DNA from: Actinomycetota bacterium
GTDB lineage: Bacteria > Actinomycetota > Actinomycetes > S36-B12
Length of the DNA stretch: 64,000 bases
Assembly: GCA_016870195.1 (NCBI GenBank)
Contig: VGCC01000004.1
Location: 36,843-100,842 of the forward strand
Reading direction: 5' to 3'
In this document: in pieces, positions 55,552-61,448 of the stretch
How positions within the stretch are numbered: the first letter of the stretch is position 1
Layout of the letters: each line of letters begins with the position of its first letter
Made by a program: the position numbers and the translations under genes
The notes under the pieces: generated by a model
Databases searched by the model: none
Told to the model about the DNA's origin: nothing
Seen by the model: only the letters and a program-made list of their open reading frames with translations

Positions 55552-56651
55552 TCGAGAGGTTTCGACTCCATCTGGTGGAGATCCCACTCGTGCGCCCCTT
55601 CCGCACGAGTTTCGGGAGCCAGGATGTGCGCGACGTCCTACTCGTCGAGGCGGTCGACGATTCAGGTGTGTGCGGGTGGGGCGAGTGCGTCACTATGGCG
55701 TGGCCGGGCTACAGCTCGGAGTACACCGCGGCTGCTGTGGATGTGCTGCGTGATCACTTGATCCCTGCATTGACACCTTCATTCGATGCCGATCCCCTCG
55801 CGATTCGCGATCAGTTGGAGGTTCTGCGCGGGCACCCGATGGCCAAGGCCGCCCTCTCCACCGCTCTCCTGGATGTGTGGCTGCGTCTGCGCGAGGAGTC
55901 GCTCGCGGACTACCTCGGCGCCTCGCGCACCGAGGTGGAGTGTGGGGTGAGTGTGGGTATCCCCTCGGGCATCGAGGAACTCCTCGACGAGGTTGCCCAG
56001 TACGTCGACGCCGGCTACCGACGCATCAAGCTCAAGATCCAACCGGGATGGGACCTCGAGCCGGTCGCCGCAGTGCGCGAGAGGTGGCCGAGGGTCCCGC
56101 TGCAGGTGGATGCGAATCAGGCGTACACCCGTGATCACGCTCGTCATCTCGCGCGCCTCGACGAGTACGGACTGCTGCTCATTGAGCAGCCGCTGCCCGA
56201 GGATGACCTCTGGGGCCATCGGCTCATCGCGGATGCGATGAACACCCCCGTGTGTCTGGACGAGTCGATTCTCTCCGTAGCGTCGGCGGAGTCGGCGATC
56301 GAGTTCGGGTGCACGGAGATCATCAACATCAAGCCCGGACGCGTAGGCGGGTATGTGACAGCCCGTGAAATCCATGACCTCTGTCGGGAGCGCGCGATCC
56401 CCGTCTGGTGCGGAGGGATGTTGGAGACCGGAATCGGCCGCGCGGCGAACCTCGCCCTCGCCGCACTCCCGAGTTTCACGCTCCCGGGTGACACGAGCGC
56501 ATCCGATCGCTACTTCCGGGTGGACATCACCGAGCCGTTCGTCCTCGAGCATGGATGTTTGGCGGTGCCCACGGGTCCCGGCATCGGGGTTGATCCGATT
56601 GCCGAGGAGATGGATCGCCAGCGGCAGGCGACCTGGGAGATCGCGGTCTAG
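55548..56651 (+). CDS. N-succinylamino acid racemase / o-succinylbenzoate synthase (NSAR/OSBS subfamily)
   Basis: PFRTSFG, GYRRIKLKI.PGWD, QVDAN, IEQPL, CLDES, NIKPGRVGG, WCGGMLETGIGRA, GDTSASDRY. Confidence 0.88.
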   Translation: MIERFRLHLVEIPLVRPFRTSFGSQDVRDVLLVEAVDDSGVCGWGECVTMAWPGYSSEYTAAAVDVLRDHLIPALTPSFDADPLAIRDQLEVLRGHPMAKAALSTALLDVWLRLREESLADYLGASRTEVECGVSVGIPSGIEELLDEVAQYVDAGYRRIKLKIQPGWDLEPVAAVRERWPRVPLQVDANQAYTRDHARHLARLDEYGLLLIEQPLPEDDLWGHRLIADAMNTPVCLDESILSVASAESAIEFGCTEIINIKPGRVGGYVTAREIHDLCRERAIPVWCGGMLETGIGRAANLALAALPSFTLPGDTSASDRYFRVDITEPFVLEHGCLAVPTGPGIGVDPIAEEMDRQRQATWEIAV

Positions 56652-58327
56652 GCCGGGAGCACTGCGGCGATCCGCGAGATCGTCAGGTTGCGCACCTGTT
56701 CGATCCCGAAGTCGAACGCGGTCACGCTTCCCCCACCCATGCGGATCGGTTCCATGTGGATCATCACGGTTTCACCGCTCGCATCGGCGTAGCCGATGCG
56801 GATCGGTGCATGAGCCTCGATGGCATTGCGCAGTGCCGTCACGACCGCGCCGGTCGACATGGGTTCGACGTCCACCACGACATCCGCTGACTCCGTACGC
56901 GTTCCACGACGAAGCCCGGCGATGACCGCCGTGATCATTCGCTCCTGATTTCTGCGGGTCACAGTGATGGGGGGCTCGTCCCAGGTGCGCACCTGCTGCG
57001 GCACCGATTCAACGTTCGTTCGTTGCGCGTCGTCGAACAGATACGCCATAGCGCTGGGAACCGGTGTTGCACTGTGCGCGGCCAACCAGTGACGGATGTC
57101 ATCAGCCTGCATCCCTCGCCCGATACCCCGACGCACACTGGACGCTGACATCCGGAACACCGAGGCATGCCCACGAGACTCGACATCGGCGAATCGGCCG
57201 AGTGTCAGGCGAATGGACATCGGAAGGGGGCCTGGACACGTGATCGTCATATCCGCCTGCGGGATGACGCGATCGACGACGTCGGGCATGGCCTCCGCCA
57301 GTCCGCTCTCCCGATGCTCGATCCAGGACCGCCCGAAGTGCGTGAGGACACCGCGCACCATCACGCCGAGGCACTCGGCCTCCGTCAGGGTCGCCCGGAT
57401 CACCTCGTCCCGTGCTGGCCCGGAGCGTCGCGGGAATCGATAGGCGGCCGCCGCGATTATCGAGTCCGCGGACACGCTCTCCCCTACCTCGGTCTCGTTC
57501 AGCAGTCCGAGCACCATGCGACGCGCACCCGACGTGAGCGCGGAGTCCGTGGCCGGGTCGAGCGGACGTCGGTCCGCTGCGAATCCCACACGTGGCAACG
57601 ACACCCAGGTGTCGACGATCAACCTCCACTGTTCCGCCGGTGGGAGTGCACACCACGCGGTGAAGCGATCCGTTGCCATCCATTCGCGAGTATCCAGCGC
57701 GATCAGATGCGCGGCCGCGGCGCATTCGAGGAGCAGCGACGCTTCTCCAACCGAGATCCCTACCGTGTCGGCCAGTGCTGAGACATCCCTGGCCGAAATT
57801 CCATCGGAGCGCAATGCCGGCATCGGAGTGAACGAGATCTCGTCGACAAGCATCGCAACGTGGTCGAGGAGCATCAGGATCTCCGCGATACCCGCGTCGG
57901 GGCTCAGTTCGTGCACGCGGCCGGTGCCGACCGTGGGCACGACGGATGGTGGGGGAGTGATGTCGGGCACCATGCCGGCCACGGCCGTCACCACCCTCAG
58001 TGCGTCCGGATCACCCCACACCAGTCCGAGCGTCCGCAGATCGTCGATCGCCGCGCCGGCGGTGCTGGGGTCGACCGGGATCCGGGCGAGCCAGGAATCG
58101 CGGTCGGGGTGGGCGACGGTGAGGCAGTAGAGCGCCAGGGCATCCAGCGTGTCGAGGCACCGGGCGATGGAGGGCCCGGCGGTGGCGCGGGTGGTCAAGG
58201 CGGTCATGTCCGACGGCGCGGGGGTGATCAAGTCGGGCCTCCGGCGCAGCAGAGCAGCCAATTCCTCGTCTGTTCGGCGGCGCAGGTCATCGGCGAGGCT
58301 CTTGGGCCTCGTATGGGTGTCGGGCAT
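56648..58327 (-). CDS. XPB-associated helicase-domain protein (Rv0862c-like) with C-terminal WYL-like domain
   Basis: SLADDLR...L..LL..RPDL, QADMT...PGPL, ADVESRG.A.VFR, C-terminal Y.D..G...I.RI. Confidence 0.8.
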   Translation of the reverse strand: MPDTHTRPKSLADDLRRRTDEELAALLRRRPDLITPAPSDMTALTTRATAGPSIARCLDTLDALALYCLTVAHPDRDSWLARIPVDPSTAGAAIDDLRTLGLVWGDPDALRVVTAVAGMVPDITPPPSVVPTVGTGRVHELSPDAGIAEILMLLDHVAMLVDEISFTPMPALRSDGISARDVSALADTVGISVGEASLLLECAAAAHLIALDTREWMATDRFTAWCALPPAEQWRLIVDTWVSLPRVGFAADRRPLDPATDSALTSGARRMVLGLLNETEVGESVSADSIIAAAAYRFPRRSGPARDEVIRATLTEAECLGVMVRGVLTHFGRSWIEHRESGLAEAMPDVVDRVIPQADMTITCPGPLPMSIRLTLGRFADVESRGHASVFRMSASSVRRGIGRGMQADDIRHWLAAHSATPVPSAMAYLFDDAQRTNVESVPQQVRTWDEPPITVTRRNQERMITAVIAGLRRGTRTESADVVVDVEPMSTGAVVTALRNAIEAHAPIRIGYADASGETVMIHMEPIRMGGGSVTAFDFGIEQVRNLTISRIAAVLPA

Positions 58328-58464
58328 CAGCCCCGCCGCGTCCGAGCAGGCGGGCGGAGGATCACGCCACCAGGATATGCCCCGGATAGGGGCTGTTCCC
58401 GGGCCGATCGGCTGACGCTAACCTTTTGGACTCCGAGCCGACCGGCTCGACAACGGAGGTTGCG

Positions 58465-58848
58465 GTGCCCACCGGAACAGTGAAGTGGTACGACTCCACC
58501 AAGGGGTTCGGCTTCATCTCCTCGGACGACGGTGAGGACGTATTCGTGCACGTCTCCACGCTTCCCGCAGGGGTCACGGCTTTGAAGCCGGGCTCGCGTG
58601 TGGACTTCGGCGTGGTCGATGGCCGTCGGGGCAAGCAGGCGCTCAGCGTCACGGTCCTGGAGGCACCTCCGTCACTGGTCAAGGGATCTCGCAAGGATCC
58701 CGACGACATGGCCGTGATCATCGAGGATCTGATCAAGTTACTCGACAACATCAGCAACCAGATGCGCCGCGGCAAGTACCCCACGGACGCGATGGCCCAA
58801 AAGACCGCTGCGGTTCTCCGGGCAGTCGCCGACGATCTGGACGTGTAG
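58465..58848 (+). CDS. Cold-shock domain protein with C-terminal extension (CspB-like)
   Basis: PTGTVKWYDSTKGFGFI, DVFVH; SD GGAGG. Confidence 0.92.
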   Translation: MPTGTVKWYDSTKGFGFISSDDGEDVFVHVSTLPAGVTALKPGSRVDFGVVDGRRGKQALSVTVLEAPPSLVKGSRKDPDDMAVIIEDLIKLLDNISNQMRRGKYPTDAMAQKTAAVLRAVADDLDV

Positions 58849-58850
58849 TC

Positions 58851-59609
58851 GTGCCGAGCTCCGCGACCCTCAAGGAGGACTCGGTGGTTCTCGGGGCAAC
58901 CGAGGCCGCCGAGGCCGCTGCCCGCTCTGAAGCACCGACCGTGGGTGGGTTCCTCGGTGCGTATATGGAATCGGAGCATGTCGCCGTCCACCACTTCGCA
59001 TGCACCGACCCGGGATATGTGGGCTGGGTGTGGGCGGTCACCGTGGCCCGTGCACCGCGGATCACGACGCCCACGATCTGCGACGTCGTCCTCCTTCCGG
59101 GTGAGGGAGCGCTTGTGGCACCCGCGTGGGTTCCCTGGAGCGCGCGCATTCGACCCGGGGATCTCGCCGTCGGAGATGTCCTTCCGACTCCAGCCGATGA
59201 TCTGCGTCTCGTCCCGGGTTACACCGGCGAGGCGGACGTGGATGGTGCTGCCGGTGACGAACCCCTCGGTGTCATGCGTTGGGTCTGGGGGGTGGGACGG
59301 GAACGCGTTCTGTCCCCCTGGGGCCGCGATGTCGCAGCGGACCGTTGGGATGACGGCGACTTCGGCCCGCACTCGGACATGGCCCAGGCCGCTGCGATGC
59401 ACTGCGGGACCTGCGGCTTCCTTGTGACCATCGGCGGCCCACTCGGCCAGGGCTTCGGCGTCTGCGCCAACGAGATGTCACCGGCGGATGGCCGAATGGT
59501 GTCCCTGGGCTATGGGTGTGGCGCGCATTCGCAGGTGGCCATCGACGTCGTCCCCACAACCCTGACTGAGCGCGAGGAGGATGTGGCCGTCGAACTCGGT
59601 CACTCCTGA
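58851..59609 (+). CDS. DUF3027 protein
   Basis: GYVGW.WAVTVAR, LLPG..AL.AP.WVPW, C.TCGF, FGVCAN, GCGAHS. Confidence 0.9.
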   Translation: MPSSATLKEDSVVLGATEAAEAAARSEAPTVGGFLGAYMESEHVAVHHFACTDPGYVGWVWAVTVARAPRITTPTICDVVLLPGEGALVAPAWVPWSARIRPGDLAVGDVLPTPADDLRLVPGYTGEADVDGAAGDEPLGVMRWVWGVGRERVLSPWGRDVAADRWDDGDFGPHSDMAQAAAMHCGTCGFLVTIGGPLGQGFGVCANEMSPADGRMVSLGYGCGAHSQVAIDVVPTTLTEREEDVAVELGHS

Positions 59610-59803
59610 ATTCGTCGAGCCCGACGCTGGAAGTACGGCAGCGCCAGCGCACCGGTGATCGTCCCGGCCGCTGCGACCCCCCACCACCAGACACCCTCCG
59701 CGGGCGGGCTGATCGGTAGGAGGAGGGACGCGACGATCAGGGCCACTACCCACAGGATCGTCGCAACCGCCGTCGGCAGAATCGCTGTCCGGTCCGAGTT
59801 CAT
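59600..59803 (-). CDS. Small two-TM membrane protein (DUF2530-like)
   Basis: Two hydrophobic helices with basic tail; SD AGGAG; conserved position after DUF3027. Confidence 0.65.
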   Translation of the reverse strand: MNSDRTAILPTAVATILWVVALIVASLLLPISPPAEGVWWWGVAAAGTITGALALPYFQRRARRIQE

Positions 59804-59912
59804 CGACCATCTCCTGTGTCGGATGTGACGTCTGCTTCGGAGGGTACGCGCGTTGACGTGGACGTAACCGCAATTCCTTCCATTAACGCAAGTTGAACAA
59901 TAGGTTATGCGC

Positions 59913-59973
59913 GTCCCGGGTTGGCGCCCCCCGCGTATTCCCTGAGCCCGGACTCCATCGAGAGCTCAGGAGG
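59913..59973 (+). ncRNA. Candidate cis-regulatory leader with alternative SD-sequestering hairpin
   Basis: GTCCCGGGTT/AGCCCGGAC stem competes with CCTGAGC/GCTCAGG, which overlaps the SD. Confidence 0.4.
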
Positions 59974-59978
59974 TTTGC

Positions 59979-61448
59979 GTGTCCCTTACCGATTCCCGTC
60001 AGGTCACCAGTTTCGACCGCTGGTTCGAACTGACCGCGCGCGGGTCCACCTACGGCCGGGAGATCCGCGGTGGTGTCGTCACGTTCTTCACGATGGCATA
60101 CATCGTCATTCTCAATCCGCTGATCATCGGAACGGCGAAAGACGTCAACGGCCAATTCATCGGTGCCACCGATGACATCGTCAAGTCGATCACCATGGTG
60201 GGTGCCGCGACCGCGTTGGTTGCCGGCCTCATGACGATCCTCATGGGTGCCATCGGGAGATTCCCGGTCGCTATCGCGGCGGGTCTGGGCCTGAACGGCT
60301 TCGTCGCCTTCACCCTGGCACCTCAGATGACCTGGGCCGATGCCATGGGCCTGGTGGTCATCGAAGGCATCCTGATCCTGTTGTTGGTCCTCACTGGGTT
60401 CCGTGCTGCGGTCTTCAATGCGGTGCCAGAGCAGTTGAAGTACGCGATCGGCGTCGGCATCGGCCTGTTCATCACGCTCATCGGTTTGGTCGACTCGGGG
60501 ATCGTCAAGCCGGGTGTGCCGTTGATCAGTTTCGGCACGGGGGGCGTGCTCCAGGGCTGGCCGACATTCGTCTTCGTCTTCGGCCTCCTGCTCACCATCG
60601 TCCTGGTGGTGCGCAAGGTCAAGGGCGCGATTCTCATCGGCATCCTGGCGACCGCAGTCCTCGCGATCGTTCTCGAGAGTTGGTTGGGGCTCGGTCCGCG
60701 CGTGGGCGGCGATGGACAGATCGCCAACCCCGTCGGCTGGAGCTTGAACGTTCCGGCCATTCCCGAGCAGGTGATCGCATCCCCCGATCTCGGGCTGCTG
60801 GGTCAGTTCAACCTGTTGGGGTCCTGGTCCGCGATCGGCGTGATCGCGACGATCCTGGCGATCTTCTCCCTGATGTTGAGTGACTTCTTCGACACCATGG
60901 GGACCGCCTTCGGACTGGCCACGGAAGCGGACCTCATCGACAAGGATGGGAACATCCCGCACTTCCAAAGCATCCTGGTTGTGGACTCCGTGGCTGCAGC
61001 AGCGGGCGGCGCGGCATCTGTATCGACGAACACCTCCTATATCGAGTCCGCTTCAGGTATCGGTGAGGGTGCGCGTACTGGTATCGCGTCGCTGGTCACA
61101 GGTGCGCTGTTCCTGATCGCGATGTTCTTCACCCCGCTGGTGACGGTCATCCCGCATGAGGCGGCCACTCCGGCGCTCGTCGTCGTGGGCTTCTTGATGA
61201 TGACGCAGATTCGTCACATCAACTTCCTCGACTACACGATCGGCATTCCCGCGTTCCTCACGATCGCGTTGATGCCGTTCACCTACTCGATCACGGTCGG
61301 CATCGGAGCCGGCTTCGTCTCCTGGCTGGTCATCAAGATCTTCCAGGGCAAGGCCCGCGAGGTGAACTGGCTGATGTGGGTGGTCTCGATCGCCTTCATC
61401 ATCTATTTCGCCGTGTCACCCATCGAATCACTGCTCGGTCTCGGCTGA
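59979..61448 (+). CDS. NCS2/AzgA-family nucleobase (purine) permease
   Basis: EIRGGVVTFFTMAYI..LNP, GLGLN, DFFDTMGT, YIESASG..EGARTG, MPFTYSI. Confidence 0.92.
   Translation: MSLTDSRQVTSFDRWFELTARGSTYGREIRGGVVTFFTMAYIVILNPLIIGTAKDVNGQFIGATDDIVKSITMVGAATALVAGLMTILMGAIGRFPVAIAAGLGLNGFVAFTLAPQMTWADAMGLVVIEGILILLLVLTGFRAAVFNAVPEQLKYAIGVGIGLFITLIGLVDSGIVKPGVPLISFGTGGVLQGWPTFVFVFGLLLTIVLVVRKVKGAILIGILATAVLAIVLESWLGLGPRVGGDGQIANPVGWSLNVPAIPEQVIASPDLGLLGQFNLLGSWSAIGVIATILAIFSLMLSDFFDTMGTAFGLATEADLIDKDGNIPHFQSILVVDSVAAAAGGAASVSTNTSYIESASGIGEGARTGIASLVTGALFLIAMFFTPLVTVIPHEAATPALVVVGFLMMTQIRHINFLDYTIGIPAFLTIALMPFTYSITVGIGAGFVSWLVIKIFQGKAREVNWLMWVVSIAFIIYFAVSPIESLLGLG

Follow-up and report, generated by a model that had tools for sequence, protein, structure and literature searches.

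A 66-nt leader precedes the gene for an AzgA-type purine permease (family NCS2) in the window, a 64,000-nt stretch of contig VGCC01000004.1 from an Actinomycetota bacterium. Comparison between species indicates that this leader is under strong purifying selection, and we predict, with confidence that is evenly balanced, that it is a translational switch acting by alternative pairing, in which a 5′ stem-loop competes with a helix that masks the Shine-Dalgarno (SD) sequence of the permease. The evidence lies in the conservation of the leader within its genus (g1), in a compensatory change in the masking helix, and in the recurrence of the same plan before orthologous permease genes of other genera.

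Architecture of the permease leader

The 489-aa open reading frame (ORF) behind the leader matches Pfam Xan_ur_permease (E = 5.4e-20), and its label as an NCS2/AzgA permease, given by an earlier reading of the sequence alone (the sequence-only reading), holds because, among solved structures, its protein is nearest to the adenine/guanine permeases AZG1 and AZG2 (E = 5e-43). An AGGAGG SD at 59968-59973 stands 5 nt ahead of the GTG start at 59979, and the length of the leader is counted from a predicted mRNA 5′ end at about 59913. The features of the leader and gene are as follows.

59901..59906, + strand: predicted -10 box TAGGTT, of the TAnnnT type
59913..59922, + strand: 5′ arm of stem P1, GTCCCGGGTT, with C59916 bulged; predicted mRNA 5′ end
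59924..59936, + strand: hairpin P2, GCGC-CCCCC-GCGT, with GCGC (59924-59927) paired to GCGT (59933-59936) and the loop CCCCC
59937..59944, + strand: conserved C-rich joining strand ATTCCCTG, 8 nt, on the 3′ side of the internal loop
59939..59947, + strand: anti-SD strand TTCCCTGAG-C, as given by the RNAalifold consensus for the genus; pairs best with the SD region
59945..59953, + strand: 3′ arm of P1, AGCCCGGAC, pairing with 59913-59922
59954..59963, + strand: variable linker, 10 nt, lengthened in G003 and far more so in G002
59964..59973, + strand: 3′ strand of the masking helix plus the SD (GCTCAGGAGG)
59979..61448, + strand: AzgA-type (NCS2) purine permease gene, GTG start, 489 aa, assigned from Pfam and solved relatives

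The TAnnnT at 59901..59906 is the sole one within 170 nt before the start in five of the six genus g1 members, and the stretch from the -10 box to the start is kept at 15-16 of 16 nt in four sister species. An E. coli-type promoter consensus scan of the leader region found nothing.

Two folds would compete for the leader. P1 encloses 59923-59944, and within this loop lies the 4-bp hairpin P2, which the sequence-only reading had not mentioned. The two arms of P1 do pair where that reading had placed them, but not as a perfect duplex, since the stem includes a bulged C and a G-U pair. It consists of nine pairs, in the order G-C, U-A, C-G, bulged C59916, C-G, G-C, G-C, G-C, U-G and U-A. The competing masking helix, CCTGAGC (59941-59947) with GCTCAGG (59964-59970), is the perfect complement that had been claimed. 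The P1 3′ arm has the nucleotides 59945-59947 (AGC) in common with the masking helix, which makes the two folds mutually exclusive over 3 nt, as had also been claimed; mutually exclusive helices of this kind are a feature of riboswitch expression platforms. The further claim that masking occludes the AGGAGG stands in part: the helix reaches the SD, but of AGGAGG its perfect portion takes in no more than the first 3 nt, and two further pairs beyond a bulged A widen the cover. The anti-SD strand at 59939..59947 takes in part of the C-rich strand together with the first 3 nt of the P1 3′ arm. The minimum-energy fold of the leader is the SD-masked one, at -25.6 kcal/mol against -17.5 kcal/mol with P1 and P2 enforced, and no other window of the leader pairs as well with the SD region as the C-rich one (-16.0 versus -10.5 kcal/mol).

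Conservation of the leader within the genus

The genus g1 set comprises the window and five other species, all five with an orthologue of the permease, and contains only three leader variants. From 59913 to the SD, the leaders of four of the six members are identical. The element at 59913-59953 is identical at 41/41 positions in G005, G004 and G001, in which the upstream intergenic DNA is identical at 72-78 of 93 positions (77-84%) and the first 45 nt of the permease ORF at 40-41 of 45. In the more divergent relatives the element again retains more than the DNA upstream of it, with 37/41 versus 60/93 in G003 and 31/41 versus 39/93 in G002. The linker at 59954..59963 is identical at just 5/10 (G003) and 4/10 (G002) positions.

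The substitutions that do occur are compatible with the helices. All four element changes of G003 fall in the bulge, the P2 loop or the joining strand, and T59943C is matched by A59968G, so that a U-A pair of the masking helix becomes C-G and CCUGAGC/GCUCAGG becomes CCCGAGC/GCUCGGG. Both G002 changes at paired positions keep the pair, one by G-C to G-U and the other, in P2, by G-U to G-C, and P1 is extended there by a U-G pair through a U added in the 5′ arm and a G inserted in the 3′ arm. The P2 stem is kept in all genus variants, with loops of CCCCC, CCCC or CGAT. The six inner pairs of P1 together with P2 are paired in 100% of the cells of five distinct genus rows. For the genus alignment RNAalifold favors the SD-masked fold, in which both sides have changed at two pairs. 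Read from the opposite strand, the G-U pairs of P1 and P2 would become C-A, and they therefore point to an RNA of the sense strand.

Contigs from four lake-water runs were compared with the window. In one of these runs, X18, a second contig covering window positions 59678-60039, with 40 differences over 362 nt, occurs beside an identical one, and represents a second strain, a co-occurring relative.

Orthologous leaders across the family

At a cut-off of E ≤ 1e-100 the permease orthologue was found in 79 of 173 genomes of the family, and 60 further upstream regions were taken. An SD-led start is present in 64 of 73 upstream regions, and nine have no acceptable SD. Forty distinct leaders, belonging to genera g1, g2, g4, g7, g9, g12 and g15, contain the motif (N)UUCCC(C)(C)UG at a distance of some 30-70 nt upstream of the start. 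Nearly every leader has a single TAnnnT at matching distance, with the element beginning 5-7 nt beyond it, and this box is presumably the -10 promoter element. The genera share a common plan of a 5′-end stem, a variable hairpin, the (C)UUCCCC(C)UG strand and the SD, although the stem sequences differ. The hairpin between the stem and the C-rich strand is specific to each group (GCGC/GCGU, GCUGA/UYAGC, CGAC/GUCG, CCUG/CAGG or GCGYCGC/GCGGCGC).

The outer stem is best documented in g2, g15 and g9, for which 18 distinct leaders were aligned with MAFFT and no structure fitting. In this alignment the CGGNNCGUYG 5′ strand and the 14 nt after the C run are gapless in g2, g15 and both g9 subgroups. 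The outer stem is paired in 86.7% of 180 cells, versus 14.4-42.2% after sliding the partners by 1-3 columns, and it contains three both-sided pair changes, with a covariation score that was reached by 4 of 500 shuffles. When 11 g7A leaders were added by hand, 177 of 231 cells were paired, versus 20.6-42.4% after sliding, and pair 5-10′ of this larger alignment occurs as A-U, U-A and U-G. Folded as single sequences, 22 of the 40 leaders display the plan, versus a mean of 13% in shuffles, and a strict descriptor of it fits 3/3 leaders of g1, 3/5 of g2 and 13/16 of g7.

A covariance model built from g2, g15 and g9 (R2) retrieved, among the leaders, only those of g2/g15/g9 type, including three held-out g2 leaders, apart from one weak g7A match (E = 3.6). 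Applied to 151 family genomes, it gave 25 matches in 24 genomes. The 19 strong ones (E ≤ 3.7e-6) all lie directly before the permease, 17 of them by comparison with the orthologue coordinates and two by separate examination, and none of the six weak ones (E 0.0013-0.0068) is a permease leader: four are within coding sequence, one precedes an unrelated ORF by about 166 nt and one lies in a region without a clear gene. The leader is single-copy in the genome of the window. A search of 173 family genomes for the pattern CGGNACGTY..CTTCCCC, which by eye gave numbers similar to a reversed control and had a gap range that missed g7A, found matches in 68, the sole leader-type ones being the known permease leaders. 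Inspection by eye of the purH, purF and hpt leaders revealed nothing similar.

Outside the family, 74 upstream regions of orthologues from other actinobacterial families did not have the motif in a matching place. Orthologues from many other actinomycete genera (L028-L105; Kribbella, Micromonospora, Nocardioides and others) have a TCTGGCA(N)GAT-like motif in common, close to the start codon within the 10-45 nt before the permease start. This may be an operator, or an extended -10 promoter for an mRNA with a short leader or none.

Individual leaders within the family depart from the plan in their own ways. L007 (G008, genus g4) is a leader of about 150 nt before an ATG, with GAUUCCC present twice, the second copy about 30 nt before the SD, and with CCCGGG repeated beside the SD. 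In L011, L146 and L149 (g15) the promoter and CGGCAC are kept and the hairpin and C-rich strand are missing, which looks as though the element had been deleted from part of genus g15. In g9b a tRNA gene lies about 60-90 nt upstream of the permease leader (L143 226-310, minus strand; L151 97-180, plus strand). Eight of the nine regions without an SD belong to a paralogue class that is 64-68% identical to the permease of the window (L152 and L155-L161, from G051, G076, G078, G072, G168, G170, G069 and G166). These genes have a TAnnnT about 6-9 nt before the start codon and no C-rich element, so this second AzgA-type permease class looks to be transcribed leaderless.

A possible role of the C-rich strand beyond SD masking

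When the 40 distinct leaders are compared, the SD region pairs best with the C-rich window in 19, including 2/3 in g1, 3/5 in g2, 10/11 in g7A and 3/3 in g15. The complementary sequences differ even within g7A, where L114 has CCCUGG and, before its SD, CCAGG, in place of the CCCCGG and CCGG(G) of the other leaders. In g9b the SD is masked by a hairpin of its own, CCUCCG/CGGAGG, whose span overlaps that of the outer stem's 3′ strand. Conservation of the C-rich strand persists in g9 despite that genus having its own SD hairpin, and this hints at a role beyond SD masking.

Evidence that tempers the interpretation

A number of results weigh against reading the leader as a conserved switch. The fold of 59913-59990 has z = -0.83, with 36 of 200 shuffles at least as stable. 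As a control for the SD complement, we took the 116 genes of the window's genome with a GGAGG SD, for which the mean best upstream complement is -13.9 kcal/mol, and 27.6% of them have one at least as good as that of the leader (-16.0 kcal/mol). A loose descriptor of stem, hairpin and C-rich strand fits 9.0% (449/4984) of NTTCCC sites across the genome. Because of these three values, the helices on this single GC-rich sequence are real yet not beyond chance, and it is only the comparison between species that appears to raise the leader above chance. The stability of the family's leaders is likewise ordinary, with a mean fold z of -0.29 over the 40 leaders.

The comparative evidence has gaps of its own. 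Three leader variants are a small sample for genus g1, and a metagenome scan for the g1 core provided no new variant: one of 58 matches was a true leader, identical to the G005 type, and the remaining 57 were unrelated DNA that by eye mostly resembled coding sequence. Neither P1 nor P2 has a pair changed on both sides within the genus (0 in five distinct rows). The check that the sequence-only reading had proposed, conservation and covariation in orthologous leaders, gave a divided answer, in which the plan recurs and the outer stem has three both-sided pair changes in g2/g15/g9, but P1 and P2 have no both-sided change in g1.

Across the genera the geometry is not uniform. The strict descriptor fits only 1/10 leaders of g9 and 0/3 of g15, and RNAalifold gave another, weak consensus for the full g7A leaders. 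A covariance model built from g7A (R1) recovered just its own 11 seeds, and the g1 leader was found by neither R1 nor R2. The homology of the g1 leader therefore rests on its architecture, a 6-8-nt motif and its place before the same gene, and as judged by these models the element of the window is not tied to other genera by demonstrable sequence-structure homology. Fifteen full-length leaders (g3, g6, g10, g11 and part of g15) are without the motif, the leaderless paralogue class is also without the element, and the element is seen only before the AzgA-type permease, a single gene type.

Alternative explanations

The strongest alternative is that no ligand is involved and the leader merely tunes translation, with the SD masked constitutively or in a manner dependent on temperature or folding time, resulting in low permease synthesis, and with P1 and P2 representing only a competing fold. 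The masked fold is the minimum-energy one by about 8 kcal/mol, the element accompanies one gene only, and several lineages do without it. Aptamers are usually tightly conserved, whereas here the 5′ domain changes its geometry from genus to genus and the covariance models fail to bring the genera together. However, a 41-nt element without a single change in three species whose synonymous sites do vary exceeds what SD masking alone needs, the C-rich strand remains conserved in g9 even though a different hairpin masks the SD there, and the CGGNNCGUY 5′ strand is common to four genera. We consider ligand-free tuning unlikely on this evidence.

A protein or G-rich small RNA could instead bind the exposed (C)UUCCCC(C)UG in trans and so open or close the SD. 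Conservation of a short single-stranded motif amid varying stems is the pattern of a recognition site, and the motif is kept in g9 though it is not the main anti-SD there. Against this, no candidate factor was identified, and all 19 strong R2 matches in the 151 genomes are at permease leaders, with a single copy in the genome of the window. A motif present before one gene only makes a dedicated trans-acting factor less economical, and we regard such a factor as quite improbable. Least probable of all is conservation at the level of DNA, as a promoter, discriminator or repressor operator with the RNA helices as by-products of GC-rich sequence: the -10 box and the GC-rich stretch following it are conserved, helices of this size are common in the window's genome and the fold energies are not exceptional, but conservation extends 40-60 nt beyond the predicted start up to the SD, the arms are 23 nt apart, the G-U pairs and the pair-keeping changes possible only in RNA (G-C to G-U) are strand-specific, and the compensatory change joins positions 25 nt apart.

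Comparison with known regulatory RNAs

The sequence-only reading had found no purine riboswitch that it recognized, and the Rfam searches agree. With cmscan at E ≤ 10, the region 59400-60400 gave no Purine, Xanthine or ZMP-ZTP match. At permissive thresholds the window leader and 18 orthologous leaders gave no fitting match to any Rfam family, only chance eukaryotic families and two tRNAs. The Purine model (RF00167) had zero matches in the genome and did match the B. subtilis and L. lactis controls, and the ZMP-ZTP model (RF01750) had zero matches in the genome and matched three control genomes. The Xanthine model (RF03054) also had zero genome matches, but its controls gave zero as well, so that this search was weak. 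A search of full-text literature on riboswitches of azgA, NCS2 or purine permeases in Actinobacteria produced no relevant report of such an element.

The closest known system in plan is the NMT1 motif, the xanthine riboswitch. It is described as a hairpin with an internal bulge of highly conserved nucleotides, with expression platforms by which the ribosome-binding site is sequestered and with purine-related genes, and its RNAs are reported only from Proteobacteria (PMC7373994). The element of the window likewise combines a stem whose internal loop is asymmetric with a conserved strand, masking of the SD and a purine-related gene, and it agrees with the NMT1 definition in hairpin, bulge and a sequestered ribosome-binding site. 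The likeness is one of plan, not of sequence: the window element fails the RF03054 model, its C-rich strand doubles as the anti-SD, and its host is actinobacterial.

Other families share less of the design. Purine riboswitches (RF00167) govern purine transport and salvage genes, and in the translational adenine ON switch before add, the closing stem of the aptamer competes with an SD-masking helix. The window element resembles the add-type switch in its predicted competition between a stem and an SD-masking helix before a purine gene, but it is without a three-way junction, is about half the size and does not match the RF00167 model. The preQ1, SAM-II and guanidine-III riboswitches are 35-50 nt long, lie directly before the SD and act on translation. 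As in these classes, a strand of the internal loop that paired with the SD while P1 was closed would form a pseudoknot. Unlike them, however, the leader has no Rfam match, and its stem and SD helix share nucleotides, so that a pseudoknot and a simple two-state switch are equally likely. RNA thermometers such as fourU and ROSE mask the SD within a leader hairpin and require no ligand. The SD of the window leader is similarly paired in its predicted fold, but its anti-SD is C-rich rather than U-rich, and a thermometer would have no need of the conserved 5′ domain that competes with this pairing. We file the leader as a variant of the SD-masking, riboswitch-like switch that stands outside every described family.

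Further candidate mechanisms were rejected. Reiterative transcription of the pyrG type does not fit, as the 5′ GG and the next base vary (CGGA, CGGU, CGGC, CUGA and CCAA). There is no room for a leader peptide, a transcription terminator would have no U tract, and the C-rich tract of merely 6-8 nt is too short for a Rho loading site.

Neighboring genes and genome context

In the window a 175-nt gap separates two divergent genes, the 489-aa permease ORF and a small ORF on the minus strand (59600-59803), whose DUF2530 match is weak and under the Pfam cut-off. Two long ORFs, 56648-58327 and 58362-59402, both on the minus strand, have no NCBIfam match, and the second of these overlaps a DUF3027 gene on the opposite strand (58851-59609) and is probably not a gene. 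The genome is 64.6% GC and 99% complete, and encodes purF and purH of de novo purine synthesis as well as HGPRT for salvage. None of the sequencing runs that contain the leader stretch is recorded as RNA.

A proposed model for the leader as a translational switch

We present a hypothetical model for the translational switch by alternative pairing. In the closed state, the C-rich strand UUCCCUGAGC, extended into the P1 3′ arm, would pair with the SD region and block ribosome binding. In the open state, the 5′ stem-loop of P1 enclosing P2 would form, the C-rich strand would be held in the internal loop and the SD would be free. We infer a transcript start at about 59913, the formation of both folds in the cell and a shift of the balance between them by something. 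The strands of P1 overlap the masking helix in g1 and g7A, and in g9 the outer P1 stem overlaps the separate SD hairpin. Given that the masked fold is the more stable by about 8 kcal/mol, a factor that stabilizes the 5′ domain would leave translation ON, since the 5′ domain is transcribed first and its stabilization would keep the SD open. A consensus scan found no terminator-like site in the leader, and translation is therefore the likelier level of control.

Our leading guess, a tentative one, is that a purine-related small molecule binds the domain formed by P1, P2 and the C-rich loop and turns translation ON. The suggestion of the sequence-only reading that the leader senses a purine, a nucleotide or the initiating nucleoside triphosphate is a guess. 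Its description of a compact translational ON/OFF switch is reasonable given the conservation, the compensatory change in the masking helix and the recurring plan, but P1 and P2, whose changes within the genus are one-sided only, are at most a candidate aptamer. It is doubtful, although conceivable, that the leader represents a new and narrow riboswitch class belonging to one freshwater actinobacterial family, in which a 40-60-nt 5′-terminal stem with a variable hairpin would present UUCCCC(C)UG as the pocket for a purine-related metabolite, and binding would free the SD and switch the AzgA-type importer ON.

Were the leader to operate without a ligand, it would still be a clear lineage-specific SD-masking leader whose stems have been rebuilt from genus to genus. 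As a small element with one conserved C-rich strand, it would lend itself easily to ligand screening and structural work. If the switch is real, it would represent an unannotated regulatory RNA for purine uptake in poorly studied, mostly uncultured lake actinobacteria.

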